Assembly (NCBI GenBank): GCA_041747555.1
Contig: JBGTEY010000014.1
Span: 20,919-84,918, forward strand
Source of the DNA: Patescibacteria group bacterium
GTDB taxonomy: Bacteria; Patescibacteriota; Microgenomatia; UBA1400; PJMF01
Length of the DNA stretch: 64,000 bases
Reading direction: 5' to 3'
Positions 3,813-51,083 of the stretch are shown one piece after another. Every line of letters starts with the position of its first letter. Position 1 is the first letter of the stretch. The notes under the pieces are model-generated. The model made no database searches. It was not told where the DNA came from and saw nothing but the letters and a program-made list of their open reading frames with translations. The position numbers and the translations under genes are program-made.

Positions 3813-5450
3813 TTATTCCAAAACAGTTTGCCCAGTTGGTAGTAAATTTACAAAATGTTCCGCTGTGCTAATATCCAGATTTGATGGATCAATACTCACT
3901 TCTAGCAACATGCCTCGCCTTGTTTCTGGACTAAAGTACTGATCAAACACAAAATTTCCCAGTGAATAATAGATCATTTTTTCTTTGTACACCTCTGATG
4001 GCTGGATAACATGAGGATGCGATCCAATGATGATATCTGCACCTTCGTCAATAAACCGATGCGCCAAGGATTGAATGGACGGATTTATTTCTGTGCTGTA
4101 TTCCACTCCCCAATGGGTATACAAAATAACCACATCTACTTGTGGTCGCACTAGTTTTAAATCATTCATTGTAGATTCAAACGCATTAGACGAAAATTCA
4201 TTGTAGTTAACAAATCCAATTTTCATCCCTTGAATATCTTTGGTAAAGTAGCTTTGATCAATTTCTGTGCCAACATTTCCAAAAAAACCAACGGATGATG
4301 CATTGAGGTAGTCAAAGGTTTGTGTCAATCCAGCCTGCCCAAAATTTAGAGTGTGATTGTTGCCCAAATTGACAATCGTAATGTTGTGATCTGATAAAAC
4401 TGCTGCTGTCTCTGGAGGTGAAGTAAAAATATAATTATTGCTTGCACCAAACGCACTCCCTTCACTTACCGATGCATTGTCTGTAATTGGGCTTTCAAGG
4501 TTAACCACCACGTGGTCAAATTCATGAAAGAAATCTCGTACATCTTGCAAAATAAAGTCATAACTTTTTTGCTTGGCAATCTGTCTAATATAACGATCAA
4601 ACGATAGATCACCAGCAAACAGCAACTTAATCTTTTCAGGTTGGACAACTACTCTTTCTCCCCTTTCATGGGTTCTTACTCCCTGTCTTGCAGGCCACTT
4701 CATTACAAAATAACTAGTGGTGCTGTCTTGCACATGATTAAACTGACTTGAGTTACCGTGAAAAATAATTTCAGGACAGCCTGATGAATATTCTTTGATT
4801 GCTTCTAATTGCAATAAAATATATACACAAGCAGGACAATCCAGGTAGTCATCACTGAGCTGTAAAGCTTCCTCAACTTGATGATTGCAAATCATCGATC
4901 GAGTTGTTACATCTAGTGAAGTTGCTTGTCCAACATCTAAATAATGAGAAAAATCTACTGACGCTAAAATCATCGTGGGTTGTTGCTGCACCTCTAGGTT
5001 GAGTCGATCAGTTAGTTCGTCTAACGCATCCTGAGGTACATTTCTAGTTACTAAATAATTCTCCACCTCTGCATGGGGAAAATACTGCTTAATATATGGC
5101 CAGTGAATGGTAGCTCCGTGGTCACCCTCAACTACTGTGTCGTCAGTCACAAGATAGTTTATATCTGGTTGATGATGGTTGGGAGATAGTAGTATTATTT
5201 TTTTAATCGTACTACCCTGGTTCGCAGAAATATTTTGATAGAAATCGTCAAATCGATCGAGTAATACGTCATGGTGTGGCAAGATTACTGCTTGTGGTAG
5301 CAACTGGGGTGATGATTGTGGCAGCGTGTTTTCTTGACTCGGGACGAAGTATATTTTTCCAAACAAATACACCAGAAACAGAAAAGCAAACAAACCTAGA
5401 ATTACTAGAAAATACTTAGACAGGCGGGGCATTATCGGGAGGCGTGGCAT
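3813..5450 (-). CDS. membrane-anchored CapA/PgsA-family metallophosphoesterase with an extra N-terminal domain
   Basis: C-terminal CapA motifs VDVVILYTHWGVEYS...GADIIIGSHPHVIQP...YYSLGNFVFDQ; N-terminal TM helix; 35-bp overlap with the upstream giant ORF, consistent with an operon. Confidence 0.65.
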   Translation of the reverse strand: MPRLPIMPRLSKYFLVILGLFAFLFLVYLFGKIYFVPSQENTLPQSSPQLLPQAVILPHHDVLLDRFDDFYQNISANQGSTIKKIILLSPNHHQPDINYLVTDDTVVEGDHGATIHWPYIKQYFPHAEVENYLVTRNVPQDALDELTDRLNLEVQQQPTMILASVDFSHYLDVGQATSLDVTTRSMICNHQVEEALQLSDDYLDCPACVYILLQLEAIKEYSSGCPEIIFHGNSSQFNHVQDSTTSYFVMKWPARQGVRTHERGERVVVQPEKIKLLFAGDLSFDRYIRQIAKQKSYDFILQDVRDFFHEFDHVVVNLESPITDNASVSEGSAFGASNNYIFTSPPETAAVLSDHNITIVNLGNNHTLNFGQAGLTQTFDYLNASSVGFFGNVGTEIDQSYFTKDIQGMKIGFVNYNEFSSNAFESTMNDLKLVRPQVDVVILYTHWGVEYSTEINPSIQSLAHRFIDEGADIIIGSHPHVIQPSEVYKEKMIYYSLGNFVFDQYFSPETRRGMLLEVSIDPSNLDISTAEHFVNLLPTGQTVLE

Positions 5451-28996: not shown

Positions 28997-29491
28997 CTAT
29001 TGTACCAGGAAACCCTCAACAATCATGTCTTCTGCAGCAGCTTTAGAAATACCACGGCTTTGCAGATAAAAAATCTGCTCCTCTGGGATTCGACTCACAC
29101 TTGCCGCGTGAGAGCACGATACGTCATCGGTTAGAATTTCTAGATCAGGAACAGCTTCTGCTGTTGCTTGGTCAGAAAGCAGTAAAATTCGTTCAGTCAA
29201 AAACGAATGACTATTCCCACATTCGGGATCAATAATAATCCGACCCACAAATCTAATCGAAGATTGATCGCGTCCAACACCCTTGAGTGTCGTGCGAGCT
29301 TGGGTATTGGGGGCTTTGTGATGGATCACCACCTCCACAGATTTTTTTTGATCATTTTTGGCTTCAAAAACGCCAGAAATTGTAACTTCTGCGCCTGATT
29401 TAGTAAGTTCAACGAGATACTCACCTGGTTTTTCCAAAATAATTGGTTTTGCATCTGCAGAATCGATAGTAAAAATTGTCGGCTGTATCAC
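28997..29491 (-). CDS. sufD: short SufD-like Fe-S assembly protein
   Basis: C-terminal SufB/D signature ...EEQIFYLQSRGI...; overlaps the sufB stop. Confidence 0.6.
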   Translation of the reverse strand: MIQPTIFTIDSADAKPIILEKPGEYLVELTKSGAEVTISGVFEAKNDQKKSVEVVIHHKAPNTQARTTLKGVGRDQSSIRFVGRIIIDPECGNSHSFLTERILLLSDQATAEAVPDLEILTDDVSCSHAASVSRIPEEQIFYLQSRGISKAAAEDMIVEGFLVQ

Positions 29492-30912
29492 CCAATACTC
29501 CCTTCCATCTCATGGTCGATTAGTCTATTCATCTCCACCGCATACTCAAGCGGCAATTTACGCACCAAATCATCAATAAATCCATTGACAATTAATTTTC
29601 GCGCGTCTTCTTCGCTCACACCTCGACTCATTAGATAAAATAGTTGGTCATCCCCAATTTTGGAAACAGTTGCCTCGTGCTGCACTTCCACCTGAGAGTT
29701 AAAAATTTTATCCACAGGGTACGTGTCAGATCTCGATTTTCCATCAAGCAACAGCGCGTCACAAATCACCGTATTTTTACTATGATGAGCCTTTGGACCA
29801 ATGCTGACCAAACCACGATAACTCGTGCGCCCGCCATCTTTACTAATCGACTTAGAAACTATCGTTGAACTGGTATAAGGCGCTAAATGAATCGCTTTTG
29901 AGCCCGTATCTTGATGCTGACCAGCTCCTGCCAGCGCCATCGATAACGTCTCACCACGAGCACCTTTACCTGCCAAAATAAAACTCGGGTACTTCATCGT
30001 CACCTTAGAACCCATATTAAAATCAGTCCACACCATCTCACCTTCTTCTTCTACCCAAGCACGCTTGGTCACCAGGTTATAGACATTTTTGTACCAGTTT
30101 TGAATGGTGGTGTATTGGCAGCGAGCACCTTTTTTAACAAATATTTCTACGACTGCAGAATGCAACGAGCCACTTGAGAAATTAGGGGCCGTGCACCCTT
30201 CCACATAATGCACCGATGCGCCTTCATCCACAATAATCAGCGTTCTCTCAAACTGCCCTGCATTTTCAGAATTAATCCGAAAATACGTCTGTAGCGGCAT
30301 TTTTACCTGTACGCCCTTAGGAATATATACAAATGAACCACCAGACCACACCGCAGAATTAAGCGCAGCAAAGACATTGTCACCGGCAGGAATTATTTTA
30401 CTAAAATATTCTTTGACTAAATCAGGATACTGCGCTAAACCTTCATCCATTGATAAAAATACCACGCCGTCTTTGGCAAAAACATCTTTGAGCGAGCCGT
30501 ACACCACTTCACTATCGTACTGAGCTTTCACCCCTGCCAAAACTTCGCGTTCAGCCTTGGGAATTCCCAATCTTTCAAATGTTTCCTTGACATCTGCCGG
30601 GACATCATCCCAAGTTTTACCCGGTGCATCCATTGGTTTAAGGTAATAGTGAATATCATCAAAGTGAATTCCCGACAAGTCTGCACCCCAGGGAGGCATG
30701 GACTTTGCCTGATATTTTTTGAACGAATCCAATCTAAAATCGAGCATCCATTTTGGCTCGTTTTTCATACTTGAAAGCTCATGAATCACGCGGGCATCTA
30801 GGCCGGGTTTGGTTATATGTGAATATGAATCGGTACTGAAAGAATACCCATGTTGGTACTCGTCTTTTTCGGTTTCGAAGGTGCTGGTTTTTTTCTGTGC
30901 AAATCGTGCCAC
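29488..30912 (-). CDS. sufB: Fe-S cluster assembly protein SufB
   Basis: 474 aa; the C-terminal motif DQLFYLMSRGVSEEDARKLIVNGF is diagnostic. Confidence 0.9.
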   Translation of the reverse strand: MARFAQKKTSTFETEKDEYQHGYSFSTDSYSHITKPGLDARVIHELSSMKNEPKWMLDFRLDSFKKYQAKSMPPWGADLSGIHFDDIHYYLKPMDAPGKTWDDVPADVKETFERLGIPKAEREVLAGVKAQYDSEVVYGSLKDVFAKDGVVFLSMDEGLAQYPDLVKEYFSKIIPAGDNVFAALNSAVWSGGSFVYIPKGVQVKMPLQTYFRINSENAGQFERTLIIVDEGASVHYVEGCTAPNFSSGSLHSAVVEIFVKKGARCQYTTIQNWYKNVYNLVTKRAWVEEEGEMVWTDFNMGSKVTMKYPSFILAGKGARGETLSMALAGAGQHQDTGSKAIHLAPYTSSTIVSKSISKDGGRTSYRGLVSIGPKAHHSKNTVICDALLLDGKSRSDTYPVDKIFNSQVEVQHEATVSKIGDDQLFYLMSRGVSEEDARKLIVNGFIDDLVRKLPLEYAVEMNRLIDHEMEGSIG

Positions 30913-31406
30913 TATAACTCCTCATGGGCGAGCGCGCGTTTGGCAGTCAGAACCACAAATTCACCAGTTTTGTCAAAGTCATACTGACCTAGCTCATCGA
31001 GTGACGCCCAAGCATACTCGGTGTGCTCGTCGCTGAGGACAACTTGTGGTCGAGCTGTAGCGTCAATTGCAATATTCCATCCAAAAATAATGGAAAACAT
31101 CTGTTGTGATGCATCAAAGTAGGTATTGAGATATGTCAATGCAGATTCGGTAAATTGATCGGCGTTTAGTGCAATTCCTGTTTCTTCTTGCACCTCTCGG
31201 ACCGCATCGGCTGCATACTGCCCATCACCTGATTGATCAGTTACGGGCCACTCTGAATTCCCGCCCGGTAAGTCCCACTTTTCTGGCCTACTTTTGGCGT
31301 CGGATGCTCTTTTAAGCAACAATACATGACCATCATGTACCAGTGCCACTTTTTGCAAAAGTTTAACTTGATCGGTGAGATGGTGGGGTTTGTTTGGACT
31401 ATGCAT
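30912..31406 (-). CDS. NUDIX hydrolase
   Basis: Nudix box GGNSEWPVT...AVREVQEETGI; start placed at the ATG 31404-31406, directly abutting the sufC stop. Confidence 0.7.
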   Translation of the reverse strand: MHSPNKPHHLTDQVKLLQKVALVHDGHVLLLKRASDAKSRPEKWDLPGGNSEWPVTDQSGDGQYAADAVREVQEETGIALNADQFTESALTYLNTYFDASQQMFSIIFGWNIAIDATARPQVVLSDEHTEYAWASLDELGQYDFDKTGEFVVLTAKRALAHEEL

Positions 31407-31407
31407 G

Positions 31408-32202
31408 TTATTTTTGGTGTGTGTACCCTTCGCTGTCGACTTGGGTAGCAAGCTCAGGGCCACCGCTTTTGGCAATTTTTCCATCAATCACAATGTGAAC
31501 ATAATCTGGACTCAAGTAATCAAGAATTCGCTGATAGTGAGTGATGACAAGCACACCAGTGTTAAATCGCTTTACAACTTCTTTGACTCCAGCGGCTACT
31601 TTTTTGATGGCATCCACGTCTAACCCCGAATCAGTTTCATCCAAAATGGCATACTTTGGTTCAAGAACAGCCATTTGCACAATTTCAAGTTGCTTCTTCT
31701 CACCGCCACTAAACCCTTCGTTGAGTCCACGTTCTAGCAATTTTTCATTGACCTTAAGGTCTTTTGTGAGTGACTGCAAATGCTTTCTAAAATCAATAGC
31801 TCGTTTAAACTGCTTTTTTTCATCCTCTTGAAATCGCTCTTGATGTGCCAAGCGCAAAAAGTTCTGCACACGAACACCCGGAACTTCTACCGGATACTGA
31901 AATGCCAAAAACAACCCAAGTTGCGCACGCTCATCGGGTGACATTTCTAGAATTGAGACACCATCTACCGTTGCCTCACCATTGAGAATTTCATATGCAG
32001 GGTGACCCGCAAGCGTTGCAGCCAAAGTTGATTTTCCAGAACCATTAGGGCCCATGATCGCATGCACTTCACCTGGCTTAACTTCTAGAGAAATGCCTTT
32101 GAGAATTTCTGTTTCCTCCACAGAGACTCTCAGATCGGTGATTTTGAGTGATTTTTCTACTTTTTTGCCTGTTTTTTTATTTTTTTGCATATTCCCTCGC
32201 AA
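31408..32202 (-). CDS. sufC: Fe-S cluster assembly ATPase SufC
   Basis: GPNGSGKST, LSGGEKK, ILDETDSGLD motifs. Confidence 0.9.
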   Translation of the reverse strand: MRGNMQKNKKTGKKVEKSLKITDLRVSVEETEILKGISLEVKPGEVHAIMGPNGSGKSTLAATLAGHPAYEILNGEATVDGVSILEMSPDERAQLGLFLAFQYPVEVPGVRVQNFLRLAHQERFQEDEKKQFKRAIDFRKHLQSLTKDLKVNEKLLERGLNEGFSGGEKKQLEIVQMAVLEPKYAILDETDSGLDVDAIKKVAAGVKEVVKRFNTGVLVITHYQRILDYLSPDYVHIVIDGKIAKSGGPELATQVDSEGYTHQK

Positions 32203-32725
32203 TTTTTAGTGCCAAGCGTGCTTCTGCACGGATATCATCGATCGTTTCAATTTCATCAAGTTCTGAATCAGAAAACCATGCGATGCCATCGGTTTCTTCA
32301 ACGTTTTGCGTAAATTCAATCGAACCAACCGCTTCCATTAAGTACAAAAAACCTAAATGTTGTTCGCAGCCTTTTGGCCAAAGTTTGGTTGAAACGCGTT
32401 TTTCATGGTCTTCACTTGCGAGTCGTGAATCGAAATTTTCTTTTGAAACCCAGTGAATATTTGAGGTAATTGGTGTTGGTAAGTACTGAGAGGTTGTGGA
32501 ATCTCTTAAAATTCCAATCGGTGCGGCTTTTACCTTTATTCCTGTTTCTTCCCAAAATTCACGCTCTGCTGTTTGGTGGGGGAGCTCATCTTCCTCTGTG
32601 TGACCACCGGGAGCGAGCCACATCTTTAATTTCTTATGCTTTACTAAAAGCACTTTTTCGTCCGCAACCAAAAAACCCGCAGCAGTCAAACACGTTTTTG
32701 CCTGAAAATGTTGTAGATCAATCAC
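32177..32725 (-). CDS. NUDIX hydrolase
   Basis: Nudix box GGHTEEDELPHQTAEREFWEETGI. Confidence 0.75.
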   Translation of the reverse strand: MIDLQHFQAKTCLTAAGFLVADEKVLLVKHKKLKMWLAPGGHTEEDELPHQTAEREFWEETGIKVKAAPIGILRDSTTSQYLPTPITSNIHWVSKENFDSRLASEDHEKRVSTKLWPKGCEQHLGFLYLMEAVGSIEFTQNVEETDGIAWFSDSELDEIETIDDIRAEARLALKIAREYAKK

Positions 32726-32756
32726 GGGTGTATTGTACCAGGTTTTGCCATGGGCT

Positions 32757-33341
32757 CTAGATTAAACTCATCTGGACTCCCGCATCTTTTTGGGGAGCAA
32801 AGCTAAAATCCACGGGACAATCAATTAATCTATTCCATTTGTTTTTAAACTGCACAAAACCTTTTTGCAACCCAACGTCATAAATATCACGTGTCACGGC
32901 AACGTCCTGCAAACAGTATTTTTCAAGTGCGTCCCAGTTTTGATTTTTGTAATATTTGATCGCATCTAATCCATCGCCACTTTTTCCAATTCCAAGGGTT
33001 TCCTGAGCTACTGAATCTAACTTAATGCGATGTCCTGCGCTATCTTTGATCCTGGTTAAAAGATCAAGTGTTGGAATACGAGAAATGTCTCCTGTGTAAT
33101 AGGTAGTAAATGTGGGCATGTCAAAATTATCGATATTGAACCCAATCACAATGTCAGCCTTTTCTAACAGCGGAAATAAATCAGGCAAATCTTTTTCAAA
33201 AAAACTGAGCATTTCACCTTTGCCAGAAAATCCCGTTCGAGCACATACGCCCACAAATGAAATACCAAGTTTTTCGGGGAAAAAGCCGCCGACTTCATCA
33301 AATGTTTTTTTGGTTTCAACATCAAGAATAAGCTGCAACAT
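32757..33341 (-). CDS. RNase H-fold 3'-5' exonuclease (PolB-exonuclease-like, DEDDy)
   Basis: ILDVET Exo I motif and YCLQDVAVTRDIYD Exo III motif. Confidence 0.55.
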   Translation of the reverse strand: MLQLILDVETKKTFDEVGGFFPEKLGISFVGVCARTGFSGKGEMLSFFEKDLPDLFPLLEKADIVIGFNIDNFDMPTFTTYYTGDISRIPTLDLLTRIKDSAGHRIKLDSVAQETLGIGKSGDGLDAIKYYKNQNWDALEKYCLQDVAVTRDIYDVGLQKGFVQFKNKWNRLIDCPVDFSFAPQKDAGVQMSLI

Positions 33342-33438
33342 AGAAAAGATTCCTCATCTATTTCATTTCTGAAAAAAACAGAATACCACAGGTGCCACAG
33401 GTCATGAAACCATTGAACTTGCTCAAAAAATGAGCGTT

Positions 33439-34041
33439 TTAGCTGGCGTCAGAAAATCGTTTTGAAACCTCAGACCAATTGACGACATTCCAGAATGCTT
33501 CGAGATAGTCAGGGCGACGATTCTGGTACTTCAGGTAGTATGCGTGCTCCCAAACATCTACTCCGAGTAATGGAACGCCATTGAGATCTGAAACGTCCAT
33601 CAAAGGATTGTCTTGATTTGGCGTTGAACCGATTTGGAGTGAGCCTCCATCCAAAACCAGCCATCCCCATCCCGAACCAAATTGTCCTGCAGCTGTGTCT
33701 GAAAATTGTCTTTTAAAAGCATCAAATGATCCAAAATCTTTGGCTATCGCATCTGCGAGGTCTCCCGTTGGTTCACCTCCACCGTCTGGCGACATGCTGG
33801 TCCAAAAAAGATCATGATTATAGAATCCTCCGCCATTATTGCGTACAGCCACTGGGTGCTCAGAAACATGGGCGAGAATTTCCTCAATACTAAGATTGGC
33901 AAGCGGTGTTCCCTCTATGGCACCGTTTAGTTTATCGGTATAACCTTGATGATGCTTGGTGTGGTGAATTTCCATGGTTTTAGCATCGATGTGCGGCTCG
34001 AGTGCGTCATGGGAATATGGTAATTTTGGTAAAGAAAACAT
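33439..34041 (-). CDS. sod: Fe/Mn superoxide dismutase
   Basis: HHTKHH and DVWEHAYYL metal-ligand motifs. Confidence 0.9.
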
Positions 34042-44640: not shown

Positions 44641-45501
44641 CTACAACCCGGATTTTTGCAACTCACCCAGGATTGACTTTTGCTCTTTGGTGAGCGTTTC
44701 AGGTGTCTCGATTATCATTCTGACATACAAATCACCTCGTCCACCGCCGCGAAGCCGAGGGAAGCCTTCTTCCCTGAGTCGAACCATGGTGTGTGACTGG
44801 GTGCCGGGGCGGATTTTAAGTTTTAGTTTATCTTTCACCGTCTCTACTTCAGTTGTACCACCAAGTGCGGCGAGGGAAAAGGAGATTTTTTGATCAACAA
44901 ATAAATCATAGTTATCACGCTTAAACTTAGGATGCGTCTGAACATTAATCGTGACATCAAAATCATCAAATCTAATTCTGGTGCCATCATTTGCGCCTGC
45001 AGGGATTTTAATGGTATGTTTCTTATCTTCAATTTCAACTTCTTTTGAAACGCCCTCAAATGCTTCCATAAACGTAATCGTTATCGAGTACCGCTTCCTC
45101 CGCGCTGCTTGACCAAATCCGCCTCCAAAAAACTGCTCAAAAATATCAAATGGGTCATTGAAATCCATATTCTCAAATGGATTTTGCCCAGAACCTGAGT
45201 AGGTATAGGTAAATGGACCCTGTCGCGCACCACCAGCAAATGGATTGCCGCCCATTCCACTTGAAGGATCAAAAGCAGCGTGACCAAATTGGTCATATTT
45301 TTGACGTTTTTCTTTGTCAGAAAGAATCTGATATGCCGCGTTTATTTCTTTAAACTTGGTTTCTGCGTCTTCTTTGTCTTTGCCTTGATGTTTATCAGGG
45401 TGCCACTTGAGAGCAAGCTTGCGATATGCACTCTTAATATCAGCTTCAGATGCTGTTTTTGCAACACCAAGAATTTCGTAGTAGTCACGCTGTGTAGCCA
45501 T
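44641..45501 (-). CDS. dnaJ: DnaJ-family co-chaperone (type II: J domain plus G/F region plus C-terminal domain, no Zn-finger)
   Basis: J domain with HPD; G/F-rich linker; absence of CxxCxGxG repeats. Confidence 0.8.
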
Positions 45502-45507
45502 ACTTGA

Positions 45508-47478
45508 TTATTCGTTGACTACTTCACCCTCTTCGGCAGATTTTTTGTCGTCTGCTTTTGAATCATTTTTGCCCTTGGCATCTTTAGCAGGATCAGCGTC
45601 CTCTCCCGATCCATCTGCATCAGCTTCTGGTTTTACCCCTGCTTCAGCTTCTTTTCGCATTACCTCGCCAATTTTTTGGGCAGAGGTGAGGGTTTCTTCA
45701 GAAGCTTTTTCGAGTTCTTCCTTGGTGGCGTCTTCACTTTTGACAAGTTCTTCGAGTTTTTTGACATTTTCTTCGATGACTTCTTTGTCTTTTTTCTCGA
45801 GTTTTTCGCCGTATTCCTTGAGTTGTTTTTCGAGTTCAAAAACGACACTCTGGGCTTGATTTCTAGCCTCGACGAGATCTTTTTTACGCTTGTCGTCCTC
45901 TGCGTGCTTTTCTGCGTCAGCTTTCATTTTTTCGACTTCTTCTTCTGACAAATTGGTTGAATTTTGAATCGTAATTTTTTGTTCTTTTCCAGAAGTCTTG
46001 TCTTTTGCGGTGACATTTAAAATACCGTTTGAGTCAATATCAAAGGTAACTTCAACCTGAGGAACTCCCCGAGGTGCGGGTGGAATGCCATCAAGAATGA
46101 ACCGGCCAAGCGATCGATTATCAGCTGCCATTTCCCGCTCACCCTGTAGCACATTAATTTCAACTTGGGTCTGATTATCGGCAGCAGTAGAAAATGTCTG
46201 AGATTTACTCGTTGGAATGGTCGTGTTGCGCTCAATCAAAGGAGTGCGCACGCCACCCAGGGTTTCAAGACCAAGAGTAAGAGGAGTTACGTCAAGTAAC
46301 ACAACGTCAGAAACATCCCCGCCAATAACTCCAGCCTGAATTGCGGCACCAATTGCAACCACTTCGTCTGGGTTGACACCCTTATGTGGCTCTTTACCAA
46401 AGAATTTTTTGACTTCTTCTTGAATCTTAGGCATTCGCGTCTGGCCACCGACCAAGATAATGTCTTGGATATCACTTGGTTTCATCTTGGCATCTTTGAG
46501 CGCTTGCTCGACTGGTTTGAAACTCTGTTTTACCAAATCACTCACGAGCTCTTCTAATTTAGAGCGGGTAAGTGTAAGTGTTAAATGCAATGGCTGACCA
46601 TCGTCACCTTGAGTAATAAATGGTTGATTGATCTCTGATGATTGTGCACTTGAGAGCTCAATTTTGGCTTTTTCTGCAGCGTCTTTAATTCTTTGGAGCG
46701 CTTGGGGATCTTTACTGAGATCTTTTCCTTGATCTTTTTTGAATTCTTCAATGATCCATTCAATAACTGCATTGTCAAAGTCATCACCGCCAAGGAATGT
46801 GTCGCCATTAGTAGATTTGACTTCAAAAACTCCGTCACCAATATCAAGAATTGAGATGTCAAAGGTACCGCCACCAAGGTCATAGACAGCAATGGTTCGA
46901 TTTCCTTTTTTATCAAGTCCGTATGCGAGTGCAGCAGCTGTTGGTTCGTTGACGATTCGCTCTACCGTAAGGCCGGCAATTTCGCCAGCTTGTTTGGTCG
47001 CTTGTCGTTGTGAATCATCAAAGTAGGCAGGTACGGTAATCACTGCTCGAGTAACTTCGGTACCGAGATAGCTTTCTGCGTCTGCTTTGGCTTTTCCGAG
47101 AATTTTTGCTGAAATTTCTTGTGGGGTGTATTCCTTTTCACCAATTTTGACGACTGCCATGCCATCTTTACCTTGGGCAACAGGGTAGGAAACGTGCTTT
47201 GTGGCTGCTTTGACAGCTTTATCATTGAGCTTTCTGCCCATAAAACGTTTAACTGAGTTGACTGTTTTTTCTGGATTGAGGACCATTTGACGCTTAGCTG
47301 TGTCGCCAACGAGAACATCGCCACCTTTAAATCCAACGATGGATGGATAGGTGTTTCGACCCTCTGTTGTAGGAACGATTTTTGGGGAGCCACCTTCCAT
47401 AACCGCAATTGCGGAGTTAGTGGTTCCTAGATCAATACCAATGATTTTGCCTGTTGCGTCTGCCATAGGTCCTTTCAC
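45508..47478 (-). CDS. dnaK: molecular chaperone DnaK (Hsp70) with long K/E-rich C-terminal tail
   Basis: [18 protein letters not shown] motifs; the likely true start is the internal ATG ([18 protein letters not shown]). Confidence 0.9.
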
Positions 47479-47561
47479 AATTTTGTAAGTATATATTTTG
47501 TATGTGTACGCGGGTAGCGTATCATATTTTAGCAGTCATTGCAAGTGATTGCTAATAGGTT

Positions 47562-47954
47562 TTATTTAATTTCTTGTGATATCTGATAGAGCCAATTCCA
47601 ACCATTTTTAGTTATTCCTTTTGAAGGTGTATTCTTTCGGATCAGCTGAAGCTCATTTGTAATGACGTCAAATACTTTTTCTGTATAGGCTTTCTCAAGT
47701 ATTGCATTGATCAGATTATGAATCGCTTCATAGACCTTGGGGTACTTATAAATTTTAGCACCACCAAGCTGAGATTGAAAAAATGACTCATTTAGTTGAC
47801 TTTCTCCAAACGGAGAATAATTCTTCAACGCATCAAGCAGCATGTCCTGCCGATATCGCATATATAACACATTCTTTTCAAGCTCTGCTTCAGTCATTTC
47901 TGCTGAAGTAGCTACACTAGCACCACCATCATGTATAATTTCTGCGGTCATCAC
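47562..47954 (-). CDS. hypothetical protein (130 aa) inserted between grpE and dnaK
   Basis: ORF whose start overlaps the grpE stop by 4 bp. Confidence 0.45.
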   Translation of the reverse strand: MMTAEIIHDGGASVATSAEMTEAELEKNVLYMRYRQDMLLDALKNYSPFGESQLNESFFQSQLGGAKIYKYPKVYEAIHNLINAILEKAYTEKVFDVITNELQLIRKNTPSKGITKNGWNWLYQISQEIK

Positions 47955-48793
47955 TCCACCTCCCCCAACACCACTTTTGCGTGCTGAATCACAGAATCAT
48001 ATAACCGATAGCCGTCTTGAACAACTTTGATAACTATATCACCCGAACCATTTTTATCCACAGCTTCCATCGTTTCAATATCAAATTTCTTGCCAAGGAC
48101 GTCAATTTTTTGGAGTCCGTGATTTTCGAGCGCTTGCTTGAGTTGTTGGACCACCATGCTCAAACCAGTGTCGTCAATTTGCTTCGCTGCCAAATCGAGA
48201 AGACTGAGTGGTTGCAGCAGGTCTTCCACGACTTGTTGGGTTGCATACTTGGCGAGTTTGCCTCGTTCTTCTGCGGTTCGTCGTTGGAGATTGCGATAAT
48301 CTGCAAGTGCTCGTTGTTCCTTTTGGTGAGCCAAATTGAGTTTAGCTGCATCTGTTTTGGCTTCGATGAAGGCGTTGATGTCACGAAGTACGCCTGGGTC
48401 TTTCACGAGTTTCAAGGCTTTATCTAGAGTTACCCATTGATATTCCTGATGCTCATGACTTAACTTCACTTCCTGGTCAGGTGTTTGACACCAATACGTC
48501 AAGCCAATCACTTCATTTTCTGCACGCTTCTCACCTCTGTAAAAATGCCAACCAGTGAGTAATCTCACGAATTCAATATTCTTAATGCCCGTTTCTTCTC
48601 GAATTTCTCTCCTCAAACCAGCTTCAGGATCTTCACCCTGGTCAATTCGGCCGTAGCCAGTTTCCCAAATGCCTGGCTTATAGTTATCCTCAGAACGCTG
48701 CAAAAGTAATATCGTTTCAGTTTCTGGGTGCTCAAGAATTGCTCCCGCCGCAACCATAAAAGTGCCAATATCTGTAGGTGTATCAGATTTCAT
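47951..48793 (-). CDS. grpE: Nudix-domain / GrpE fusion protein (nucleotide exchange factor)
   Basis: N-terminal Nudix box GYGRIDQGEDPEAGLRREIREETGI. C-terminal GrpE features: helix ...ADYRNLQRRTAEER... plus a beta-domain ...VVQDGYRLYDSVIQHAKVVLG. One uninterrupted 280-codon frame. Confidence 0.7.
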   Translation of the reverse strand: MKSDTPTDIGTFMVAAGAILEHPETETILLLQRSEDNYKPGIWETGYGRIDQGEDPEAGLRREIREETGIKNIEFVRLLTGWHFYRGEKRAENEVIGLTYWCQTPDQEVKLSHEHQEYQWVTLDKALKLVKDPGVLRDINAFIEAKTDAAKLNLAHQKEQRALADYRNLQRRTAEERGKLAKYATQQVVEDLLQPLSLLDLAAKQIDDTGLSMVVQQLKQALENHGLQKIDVLGKKFDIETMEAVDKNGSGDIVIKVVQDGYRLYDSVIQHAKVVLGEVE

Positions 48794-48797
48794 GATG

Positions 48798-49520
48798 TTA
48801 TTCTACTATTTCTTGAATTAATGTTCTTAAATACCGCATCATCGGGAAAATGTAAGGATAATCAAAACGACTTGATCCCAGTACTCCCAGACGACACATT
48901 TGGCCATCTACTACGACACTCATATAAATCACACCAATCGGCTCTAAATATTTGTTCCCAAGTTCTGGACCGTATACCACTTGTACAATATTTTCACTAC
49001 TTCCGTAGGTAAAAATATCCTCAAGCAATGGTTGTTCCTCAATTAGTTGCAACACGTGTCGCATCACTTGAATATCATAAAATTCTGGCATTTGGAGCAA
49101 ATTTGCATACCCCGCATGAAAAATCTTGGTGTCATCGAGCATGCCAATGGCGAGCGCATGTGATTTGTCCGCAAGGACTTTGGTAATTTGATTGAGTAAA
49201 TCATCGAGCTCGTGACGACTTTGCCAGACTTTTTCTTTAGCAGAAACTTCATCGGCTACGGTCAAATCGCGTTCACGCATCAATTCGTTGACGTATAGTT
49301 TGAGCGCGCGCGGTGTGGGCAATCTACCCGCACTGCTGTGCGTTTTTGATAAATATCCTTGATTGGAAAGATACACCATTTCGTTGCGAATGGTGGCAGG
49401 TGAGACGCCGATGTTAAATTTTTTATCAATGGTATCTGAGCCTACTGGCTCTGCAGTCTCGATGAACTCGTCGATGATAGATCTAAGAATCTGAATTTGC
49501 CGAGCGGTAAGATCTATCAT
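48798..49520 (-). CDS. hrcA: heat-inducible transcription repressor HrcA
   Basis: N-terminal winged-helix region (...LTARQIQILRSIIDEFIETAEPVGSDTI...); operon position. Confidence 0.75.
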   Translation of the reverse strand: MIDLTARQIQILRSIIDEFIETAEPVGSDTIDKKFNIGVSPATIRNEMVYLSNQGYLSKTHSSAGRLPTPRALKLYVNELMRERDLTVADEVSAKEKVWQSRHELDDLLNQITKVLADKSHALAIGMLDDTKIFHAGYANLLQMPEFYDIQVMRHVLQLIEEQPLLEDIFTYGSSENIVQVVYGPELGNKYLEPIGVIYMSVVVDGQMCRLGVLGSSRFDYPYIFPMMRYLRTLIQEIVE

Positions 49521-49542: not shown

Positions 49543-49569
49543 TTAGCAATACTAATGGCTGTTTGCTAA
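49543..49569 (-). promoter_or_regulatory. CIRCE-like operator (TTAGCAATA-N9-GTTTGCTAA)
   Basis: Imperfect 9-bp inverted repeat with a 9-bp spacer, 23 bp upstream of the hrcA start; consensus is TTAGCACTC-N9-GAGTGCTAA. Confidence 0.55.
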
Positions 49570-49649: not shown

Positions 49650-51083
49650 ATGGCCATTCACAATAAAAGCAAAAAATCAGCACCATATCGTAAAAAACGA
49701 TTGAAGATGATCTCAAGATTTGCGGTCATATTTTTTGTCTTGGTTATGGTTGTGGTTGGAGCTTGGCAACTCGATGCAGTTCGTGAATTTCTCTCCAGAG
49801 CCAGTGGAGAACCTGCCAATCTTATGATTAACACCCAAGCAGTCATCGGCCCCATGCCGCGTCCTTGGAGAAACCTTGCCCAAGGTGGTGAATCTCATGA
49901 GTGGCGAATTCAACCGATCAATGCCGAAGTTGCCGCACTCAATCCTGAATACATACGTATCGACCACATTTATGATTTTTATGACATTGTCCAGGGATCG
50001 CCGGGCAATATTACCTTTGATTTCTCTAAATTTGACGTCATTCTTGATGATATAGAAGCGACTGGAGCAAAACCATATATTGCACTGACGTACATGCCGC
50101 CCGCGATTGCCAAAGATGATATTGTTTCTGAGCCGGTCTCATATGATGACTGGCAGTTGGTGGTACAACGCACTATTGAGCATGTGAGCGGCACGCGTGG
50201 TACGAGAGATGTCTATTATGAGGTTTGGAATGAACCCGATTTATTTGGTGGGTGGAAATATTATGGATCAAAAAATTATCTGACGCTGTACACCTACGCC
50301 GCGCGTGGAGCTCAAAATGCACGAGGCACGCAGCCATTCAAAATTGGTGGACCCGGCATTACGGCACTCTACAAAAATTGGGTTGATGCTATGGCTCGAC
50401 ATAGTTTGCAGAATAACCTGCGACTCGATTTCATTTCTTGGCATCGCTACAACCACGATATTGAGCGTTTCCGACTCGATATGACCGAAGTCCAGTCTTG
50501 GCTCAGAGAATTTCCCCAAGTCGACGTCACTGCTGAGTTGCACATTACCGAATGGGGACACGACAGCGAAAATCACGATGGCTATGACACCAATTATGGT
50601 GCAGCACACACTGCAGCGGCGGCGATTGAGATGGTTGGGGTTGTCGAGCGCGCGTTTGTGTTTGAGATCCAAGATGGCAAAGATCCTGCAGGAAAAAATC
50701 TATGGGGTCGATGGGGATTACTCAGTCATAATGATGCGGGTGCAGTCAAAAAACCTCGATACAACGCACTCATTATGCTCGATGGTATTGGAGATCAACG
50801 GTTGCAAATTTTAGGAAAAGGAACTTGGGTAAAAGCGCTCGCCGCAAGAAATGACGAGGGAAATACAGAAGTGGTGCTCTCAAATTTTGATCGAAATGGC
50901 AGAAATAGCGAAAACGTGCCCGTCACAATTACAAATATTGTTCCAGGAGAATATGTAGTGACCAAAGAATTCCTCGATGGCAGACGCCAGAGTGAGCGGA
51001 TCGCCACCACCGAAGCTGCTCTGCGCGCAGACATCCTAATGACACCCAATATGGTTGGGAAGATTACGTTTGATTTGCAGTAG
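49650..51083 (+). CDS. glycoside hydrolase (clan GH-A, GH39/GH5-like) with N-terminal TM anchor
   Basis: YYEVWNEPDL catalytic acid/base motif and a later ITEWG nucleophile-like motif; TM helix after the basic N-terminus. Confidence 0.55.
   Translation: MAIHNKSKKSAPYRKKRLKMISRFAVIFFVLVMVVVGAWQLDAVREFLSRASGEPANLMINTQAVIGPMPRPWRNLAQGGESHEWRIQPINAEVAALNPEYIRIDHIYDFYDIVQGSPGNITFDFSKFDVILDDIEATGAKPYIALTYMPPAIAKDDIVSEPVSYDDWQLVVQRTIEHVSGTRGTRDVYYEVWNEPDLFGGWKYYGSKNYLTLYTYAARGAQNARGTQPFKIGGPGITALYKNWVDAMARHSLQNNLRLDFISWHRYNHDIERFRLDMTEVQSWLREFPQVDVTAELHITEWGHDSENHDGYDTNYGAAHTAAAAIEMVGVVERAFVFEIQDGKDPAGKNLWGRWGLLSHNDAGAVKKPRYNALIMLDGIGDQRLQILGKGTWVKALAARNDEGNTEVVLSNFDRNGRNSENVPVTITNIVPGEYVVTKEFLDGRRQSERIATTEAALRADILMTPNMVGKITFDLQ

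Follow-up and report, generated by a model that had tools for sequence, protein, structure and literature searches.

Introduction

GrpE, the nucleotide-exchange factor of DnaK, is among the best-studied co-chaperones. Its canonical members, exemplified by the structures from Escherichia coli (1dkg), Geobacillus kaustophilus (4ani) and Mycobacterium tuberculosis (8gb3), have in common a long helix, a helical bundle and a C-terminal β domain, and the long helix is the thermosensor of the E. coli protein. The N-terminal tail binds the substrate-binding domain (SBD) of DnaK and drives substrate release (PMC12915176, PMC10803776), an action on the substrate-binding site that was shown only recently. 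Here, we analyzed a gene in a 64,000-nucleotide stretch of contig JBGTEY010000014.1 (hereafter the window) from a Patescibacteria group bacterium of the candidate phyla radiation (CPR), in which GrpE is joined to a Nudix hydrolase domain. This fusion shares with canonical GrpE the ADYxNLxRR helix segment and the location of its gene between hrcA and dnaK under predicted control of CIRCE elements (controlling inverted repeat of chaperone expression), whereas the disordered tail and the start of the helix are swapped for a folded enzyme domain of 130 residues.

The closest described counterparts of this added domain are small enzymes related to MutT and to the hydrolases of diadenosine tetraphosphate (Ap4A), i.e., 3grn, C. 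elegans 1ktg, human NUDT2 (3u53/4ijx), Aquifex 3i7u, DR1025, Ndx1 and NudG (2rrk). They share with the fusion a single-domain Nudix fold of ~130-150 residues and a complete Nudix box, with Foldseek E-values of 1e-11 to 1e-9 and target TM-scores of 0.7-0.84. Unlike these enzymes, in which PGG commonly precedes the box, the fusion carries an unusual WExGYGRxDQ at this place. The closest structure, the M. mazei 'MutT-related' protein 3grn, is without known substrate. A profile search of the PDB found no solved structure spanning both halves of the fusion.

A Nudix domain and GrpE share one reading frame

The fusion gene is an uninterrupted open reading frame (ORF) on the minus strand (47951-48793) that begins with ATG and encodes 280 amino acids. 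A first-pass annotation, made by a model from the letters of the window, had described a single 280-codon frame with a Nudix box followed by GrpE, and the ORF, Pfam and an AlphaFold2 (AF2) model bear this out. The suspected Nudix region passes the profile check, with Pfam NUDIX (PF00293) matching residues 12-128 at 78.2 bits against a gathering score of 21.1. GrpE (PF01025) matches residues 150-276 at 89.6 bits against 25.8, covering profile positions 25-163 of 165.

The AF2 model, computed on the family alignment, has a mean predicted local distance difference test score (pLDDT) of 85.8. It consists of a Nudix α/β/α fold (residues 13-129), a helix spanning residues 133-206, a second helix (209-224) and a β domain (227-277), with a pLDDT of about 80-94 over the GrpE part. 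We delimit the Nudix domain as residues 12-132 (48398-48760, minus strand), combining the Pfam match of 78 bits with the modelled fold and its Foldseek matches. The junction helix, residues 133-160 (48314-48397, minus strand), is the stretch in which the C-terminal helix of the Nudix subfamily is predicted to pass unbroken into the long helix of GrpE. The GrpE domain proper, residues 150-276 (47966-48346, minus strand), comprises the remaining long helix, the helical bundle and the β domain, and is supported by PF01025 together with PDB matches to 4ani and 8gb3.

The Nudix box, GRIDQGEDPEAGLRREIREETGI, occupies residues 48-70 (48584-48652, minus strand) and is an exact match to G-x5-E-x7-REUxEExGU, reading G48-x5-E54-x7-R62-E63-I-x-E66-E67-x-G69-I. 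Its residues are invariant or at least 90% conserved across the family alignment (A1), with P0025 and P0026 as exceptions, and a strict box pattern is matched by 23 of the 24 fusions of the kind found in the window (window-type or W-type). The GrpE half aligns by profile with 4ani, 8gb3, 3a6m and 1dkg. BLASTP against an E. coli GrpE sequence, verified by length and by its important residues, pairs R161 with R64, Y183 with F86, G210 with G122 and S267 with R183; an aromatic residue is thus kept at the F86 position, and G210 is invariant in the family.

The fusion recurs in the grpE slot and is under purifying selection

A homologue search covering 5.8 billion proteins identified 22 clusters (P0001-P0022) of 279-296 amino acids and 45-100% identity, derived from NCBI, JGI, ENA and Logan assemblies, all of which carry both PF00293 and PF01025. 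One of them, P0004 (57% identical), is read on 24 contigs, some of them longer than 1 Mb, in the gene order GH39 / HrcA / fusion / small ORF / DnaK (GH39, glycoside hydrolase family 39). The order hrcA / fusion / dnaK is also present in L001-L003, L018, L081 and L084-L086, and in ten of ten fusion loci examined beyond the window the fusion stands where grpE is expected, after hrcA and before dnaK. The identical slot holds grpE in related genomes that encode a plain GrpE of 146-200 amino acids, among them a syntenic relative (P0074) that has the order GT4 / GH39 / HrcA in common with the fusion loci (GT4, glycosyltransferase family 4). The spacing from the Nudix box to the ADYxN motif is equally constant, with 94 residues in 21 sequences and 95 in 3; the sole junction indel in the family is a 3-residue insertion in the degenerate P0025 and P0026. 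A look into other CPR genomes, as the first-pass annotation had suggested, hence turned up Nudix-GrpE fusions both in these 22 clusters and in a larger second family (see below).

Selection was assessed against an 86%-identical orthologue (L084). Within the fusion, the proportion of non-synonymous differences (pN) amounts to 0.110 for the Nudix half and 0.091 for the GrpE half, with 0.030 for the junction helix. The synonymous counterpart (pS) is saturated across these regions, at 0.72-0.93 overall and 0.72-0.84 in the two halves. The operon genes hrcA and dnaK have pN values of 0.025 and 0.035, respectively. Both halves of the fusion are under purifying selection.

Searches for a second GrpE were negative in the window, with a hidden Markov model (HMM) of the family's GrpE columns, and in all of 82 loci. 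P0074, on a contig of 1.08 Mb, had appeared as a possible second grpE of the same genome; it was rejected, as the contig comes from another organism, which has an hrcA / grpE / dnaK set of its own. Remnants of the Nudix C-terminal helix were sought in the stand-alone GrpEs of L006, L024, L028 and L033, for which the tblastn match reached further upstream; the alignment showed none, and therefore no direction, fusion or fission, can be derived. Likewise, no Nudix gene that might represent a fusion precursor lies within 10 kb of a stand-alone grpE in the CPR relatives. In three non-CPR loci of the Ignavibacteria/Bacteroidota type (L044 7104-11637, L056 7268-11622 and L074 5878-9100), grpE is preceded at a distance of ~2.1 kb by a Nudix gene of equal orientation; the order in L044 is Nudix / unknown 255-aa ORF / HrcA / GrpE / DnaJ. 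This arrangement may be a looser form of the association seen in the fusion.

The predicted junction displaces the tail of GrpE and keeps its long helix

In an exhaustive profile search, stand-alone Nudix relatives cover profile positions ~5-150 and end at about 145-153, and stand-alone GrpEs start at about 149-151. Because the stand-alone Nudix proteins P0220 and P0232 already terminate in a helix of the form GI(K/R)xDIxxFI, the junction appears to be a helix-to-helix splice near residues 148-150. In the AF2 model, the helix is continuous from residue 133 to 206, with a pLDDT of 88-94 in the 10-residue blocks spanning residues 131-160. A heptad periodicity, sought across the junction as a sign that the Nudix helix joins a coiled coil, had no consistent phase, and residues 144-162 are mostly polar.

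The ADYxN equivalent is preceded by 66 residues in E. coli GrpE and by 32-60 residues in the nearest stand-alone CPR GrpEs, whose tails hold an acidic/hydrophobic stretch, e.g., DELIEQLV or EIIEQLV. The fusion has only about 14 GrpE-derived residues ahead of ADYxN and has lost the (D/E)E(I/L)IEQL-like tail motif of its stand-alone relatives. The long GrpE helix itself is present (133 to ~183, with Y183 at the place of E. coli F86). Since so few GrpE-derived residues are retained before ADYxN, the displaced part is, as modelled, the N-terminal tail together with the beginning of the long helix, which is otherwise kept and is lengthened by that of the Nudix domain. The first-pass annotation had placed the Nudix domain 'in place of the usual long helical tail'. 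This holds for the tail and for the beginning of the helix but not for the long helix as such; the proposed replacement of the thermosensor does not fit either, as the helix with this role in E. coli is retained and the Nudix domain substitutes for the short SBD-contacting tail. By the geometry of homologous structures, the Nudix active site would lie ~75 Å from the cleft-opening β domain, at the far end of a helix of ~50 residues.

A second family points to independent fusion events

The locus L018 encodes a further Nudix-GrpE protein between hrcA and dnaK, P0095, which is 32% identical to the window fusion over residues 15-277. A search with P0095 yielded 1076 matches; of the best 120, 118 combine a Nudix and a GrpE domain. 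Names in this second family (F-type) include Falkowbacteria, Parcubacteria and Patescibacteria. Its member KKT13008.1 is annotated as 'ADP-ribose pyrophosphatase' and many others as 'nucleotide exchange factor GrpE'. The first-pass annotation had presented the fusion as a new wiring of the chaperone cycle: the architecture is abundant in public databases, as KKT13008.1 illustrates, but no description of a Nudix-GrpE fusion was found in a literature search covering 8 million full texts.

F-type proteins resemble the window type in domain order and in their hrcA / fusion / dnaK position. They differ in that their Nudix domain belongs to a WxIPGGHIE subfamily and their GrpE half is no closer to the window type than stand-alone GrpEs are. 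The mean identity of the Nudix domains is 48% within the window type, compared with 40% to stand-alone proteins (maximum 56%) and 26% to the second family; the corresponding values for the GrpE domains are 51%, 44% and 35%. In neighbour-joining trees, which are distance-based and built from short domains, a long branch separates the two fusion types for either domain, and an exclusive split uniting them was obtained in 0 of 100 bootstraps in the Nudix tree and in the GrpE tree alike. Because the domain trees never unite both types, the most parsimonious reading is that different Nudix subfamilies were fused to the N-terminus of GrpE at least twice independently. A single origin for all fusions was considered and, for window type versus F-type, rejected on the identities and bootstraps. 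Within the window-type clade, the trees interleave stand-alone proteins, with a resolution too low to count events.

The spacing from the box to ADYxN is similar in both types (94-95 residues in the window type, mostly 91-93 in the F-type), whereas the AF2 model of the F-type shows, in place of the unbroken helix of the window type, a short low-confidence break at residues 143-146. Longer F-type versions (P0096, P0233, P0267 and P0148) are organized as DUF1653-Nudix-GrpE of about 342-357 aa or Nudix-Nudix-GrpE of about 447-451 aa, and extra modules thus appear to accumulate at the GrpE N-terminus in this family. Since the two fusion types seem to have arisen convergently, selection probably acts on the Nudix-GrpE linkage. 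Judging from the matches, the fusion appears to be common in ultra-small CPR bacteria.

The Nudix half resembles small nucleoside-polyphosphate hydrolases

By sequence, the closest solved Nudix protein is 3grn (E 2e-11), followed by the Ap4A hydrolases of Caenorhabditis elegans and human and by NudG. The matches to the Ap4A hydrolases (1kt9, E 3e-9; 3u53, E 2e-8) are at about 22-27% identity, and NudG, NudI, MutT and 3grn score similarly. Foldseek returned 622 PDB matches at E ≤ 0.001; among the matches listed all are Nudix proteins, and the closest folds are 3grn, DR1025, Ap4A/Ap6A hydrolases, M. smegmatis MutT1/Rv2985, BdRppH and NudB. Overall, the nearest solved relatives are small nucleoside-polyphosphate hydrolases of 19-29% identity. 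Y85 of the fusion aligns with chain position 76 of the C. elegans Ap4A hydrolase (1kt9), which we take to be an adenine-stacking tyrosine; we treat this correspondence as a lead and not as an assignment. ADP- or ppGpp-specific enzymes are not prominent among the NCBIfam, PDB-sequence and Foldseek matches. The substrates named by the first-pass annotation were ADP, (p)ppGpp or Ap4A; no result singles out any of them, and the solved structures nearest to the Nudix half, at 22-29% identity, are those of MutT-like, Ap4A/Ap6A and nucleoside triphosphate (NTP) pyrophosphohydrolases.

The window-type Nudix subfamily is distinguished by its box context, WExGYGRxDQGE. The stand-alone proteins P0220 and P0232 have E21, R33, W43, E44, Y47, R49, Q52, R86, E92, S112, E114, H115 and W120 in common with the fusion. 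The subfamily also occurs stand-alone more widely and as tandem Nudix-Nudix proteins, and P0228 combines it, as judged by eye from the sequence, with a MerR-like N-terminus. One stand-alone member, P0048 (L083 4111-5021), has an archaeal neighbourhood with RNase P p30/Rpp14 and ribosomal L15e, and another Nudix gene comes immediately after it. CPR bacteria and archaea thus have this subfamily in common.

Elsewhere in the window, two stand-alone Nudix genes are present (30912-31487 and 32177-32761), one fewer than the three counted at first pass. A third was not detected with an HMM of the family's Nudix columns, with strict and loose box patterns on ORFs of at least 60 aa, or with Pfam on 10 neighbours. 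The two genes flank sufC (31408-32202) in a suf gene cluster for Fe-S assembly on the minus strand (region 28997-34041), which further contains sufB (29488-30912) and a SufBD-core fragment (28997-29491). Adjacent genes encode an RNase-H-like exonuclease (32757-33341) and an Fe/Mn superoxide dismutase (33439-34041). Such an interleaving of Nudix and suf genes is unusual.

The fusion gene lies in a heat-shock operon

All genes of the operon are on the minus strand. The fusion is preceded by hrcA (48798-49520), which encodes the heat-shock repressor (Pfam HrcA, 61 bits) and whose stop codon lies 4 nt ahead of the fusion ATG. Downstream, a small ORF of 129 aa (47562-47951) overlaps the fusion TGA with its ATG (TGATG), indicating translational coupling, and is followed by dnaK (45508-47478; Pfam HSP70, 835 bits) and by dnaJ (44641-45501), which encodes a J domain and a C-terminal domain (Pfam DnaJ and DnaJ_C). 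Two CIRCE-like inverted repeats, TTAGCA-N15-TGCTAA, are present. One is located upstream of hrcA beside a TTGACA box (49543-49569) and the other just upstream of dnaK (47529-47555), with 2 mismatches to canonical CIRCE. Because these are the sole such sites in 64 kb (two matches, with 0 expected from 100 shuffles), the fusion gene appears to belong to a classical HrcA/CIRCE heat-shock operon.

Further features of this neighbourhood concern the flanking genes. The DnaJ of the operon has 286 aa and lacks a Pfam match to the CXXCXGXG zinc-finger domain, which is present in the Ignavibacteria DnaJ of L044. The small ORF has no match in Pfam, NCBIfam or PHROG. In the close relative L084, whose fusion, hrcA and dnaK are 86%, 97% and 94% identical to those of the window, the same slot (4849-5250) encodes 133 aa with 24% identity to the window ORF and a pN of 0.50. 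The 57%-identity relative has an unrelated 146-aa ORF in this slot (L081 6840-7280), and other relatives have none. The small ORF is hence a very fast-evolving or replaceable gene within the heat-shock operon. Divergently from hrcA lies a gene for a GH39-family glycoside hydrolase (49650-51083, plus strand). The GT4 / GH39 / HrcA neighbourhood is kept in L081, L084 and L087, and L085 has an integrase-like (rve) gene at the GH39 position.

Discussion

We see an even chance that the fusion is a bifunctional, heat-shock-regulated GrpE, in which a Nudix hydrolase replaces the SBD-directed tail and tethers a nucleoside-polyphosphate-degrading activity to the DnaK machine. Such a protein would be the working GrpE of the organism, i.e., the nucleotide-exchange factor of DnaK under HrcA/CIRCE repression, with its short tail replaced by a small MutT- or ApnA-hydrolase-like Nudix enzyme that is predicted to be catalytically competent. 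Because the last Nudix helix runs directly into the long helix of GrpE, the two Nudix domains of a GrpE dimer would sit at the tip of the stalk, beside the SBD of DnaK and far from the nucleotide cleft. The C-terminal part would swap ADP for ATP on DnaK as usual, and the N-terminal part would hydrolyse a nucleoside polyphosphate, the most plausible choices being a (damaged) NTP or a dinucleoside polyphosphate, e.g., Ap4A. Through the fusion, the Nudix activity would be induced by heat shock, matched in stoichiometry to GrpE and placed at DnaK; channelling of ADP would not be part of the mechanism. The heat sensitivity of apaH mutants and the crosslinking of Ap4A to DnaK (in E. coli), GroEL and ClpB, both covered in a review (PMC10148737), make a dinucleoside polyphosphate an attractive candidate substrate, and a candidate only. 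It is plausible that the fusion is linked to the chaperone cycle, the more so given the two independent origins. A further-reaching version, in which the Nudix domain at the SBD binds and hydrolyses an alarmone (e.g., Ap4A) and so gates GrpE exchange and/or substrate release, having been invented at least twice and having become a non-catalytic sensor in some lineages, strikes us as rather improbable.

Several observations weigh against a bifunctional enzyme of this kind. All NCBIfam GrpE equivalogs remain below their cut-offs (best 70.5 bits against 137), and the Nudix half scores far below each cut-off of the NudG, MutT and NudB models. In terms of sequence, the fusion thus looks like a divergent member of both superfamilies whose Nudix half reaches no curated functional family. 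E. coli R183 is not conserved, its counterpart S267 being variable in the family. The substrate class would rest on 22-29% identity to characterised enzymes, and the second adenine-stacking tyrosine of Ap4A hydrolases lies in an insertion that is absent from the fusion. Moreover, syntenic relatives manage with a plain GrpE. Lastly, three members of the window-type clade, namely P0025 and P0026, which occupy the operon slot of the fusion, and P0216, keep a full-length N-terminal domain and have lost the Nudix box: all three fail the strict box pattern, and P0025 falls below the Pfam NUDIX cut-off. In the F-type, about 6 of 136 proteins are substituted at catalytic glutamates, the rest being intact. 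Because of these losses, catalysis appears to be dispensable in some lineages. Among W-type fusions more than 85% nevertheless keep every catalytic residue, and among F-type fusions more than 90% do. Intact catalytic residues therefore seem to be the rule, and the Nudix domain can apparently persist without catalysis. AraR (5bs6), a Nudix-fold ligand-sensor regulator, provides a precedent for a fold kept without catalysis as in P0025, P0026 and P0216, although AraR-like regulators are DNA-binding transcription factors, whereas the partner here is a chaperone co-factor and most members are catalytically intact.

The halves might also be functionally independent, a housekeeping Nudix gene having been joined to grpE in gene-dense genomes with shared (heat-shock) expression as the sole benefit. 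We regard this as possible and yet unlikely. CPR genomes are compact, and the genes of the operon abut or overlap; the Nudix subfamily is also encountered alone, in tandem and on an archaeal contig; close syntenic relatives lack the fusion; and the three non-CPR loci have a Nudix gene upstream of hrcA-grpE-dnaJ. A mere accident of gene density is, however, hard to reconcile with two independent fusions that recruited different Nudix subfamilies, both times at the GrpE N-terminus and with similar spacing. It also leaves unaccounted for the further N-terminal modules of the F-type and the loss of the SBD-binding tail motif.

Alternatively, the Nudix domain could be a ligand-binding or dimerising module, i.e., a nucleotide sensor or a structural cap at the tip of the GrpE stalk, which takes over the control of substrate release from the tail or stabilises the helix pair, hydrolysis being secondary or serving to reset the sensor. 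We doubt this explanation. It would accommodate the persistence of the full-length domain after loss of the box, as well as the rigid connection of fixed length that the constant spacing and the continuous helix suggest. The Nudix domain moreover occupies the place of the SBD-binding tail (PMC12915176), and non-catalytic Nudix sensors do exist, the AraR regulator 5bs6 being among the profile matches. However, a sensor or cap would hardly need the catalytic residues that most members of both types retain, the signature residues are identical to those of stand-alone enzymes, and the junction of the F-type model contains a flexible break.

Far less probable is the coupling proposed at first pass, in which the Nudix domain cleaves the ADP expelled from DnaK, or (p)ppGpp, and thereby makes exchange irreversible. 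The physical linkage of the domains and the intact catalytic box would allow it. Plain ADP, however, is an unusual Nudix substrate, and enzymes specific for ADP or ppGpp do not stand out among the matches. The Nudix domain lies at the N-terminal end of the ~50-residue helix (133-183), at an estimated ~75 Å from the β domain (227-277) that opens the cleft, and homologous complexes place the GrpE N-terminus at the SBD of DnaK (PMC10803776, PMC12915176). That an indel or chimera in sequencing or assembly merged two genes, the concern raised at first pass, is practically ruled out by the recurrence of architecture, length and synteny in 22 clusters down to 45% identity from four assembly sources, with P0004 on 24 contigs.

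Membership in GrpE is well supported, and the new part is the added Nudix module and its convergent acquisition. Public annotation of these proteins is inconsistent, naming them GrpE, ADP-ribose pyrophosphatase or nucleoside triphosphatase. An enzyme appears to have taken the place of the GrpE tail on at least two occasions in a large, poorly understood bacterial branch, whose members have minimal genomes and one DnaK system each. If the halves do not interact, the fusion would still be a clear case of convergent gene fusion and would call for a correction of database annotation. If they do interact, it would be the first nucleotide-exchange factor that carries its own nucleotide-metabolising or nucleotide-sensing module, and it would offer a purifiable handle on the binding of Ap4A-type alarmones to heat-shock chaperones, which has been unexplained for 30 years.

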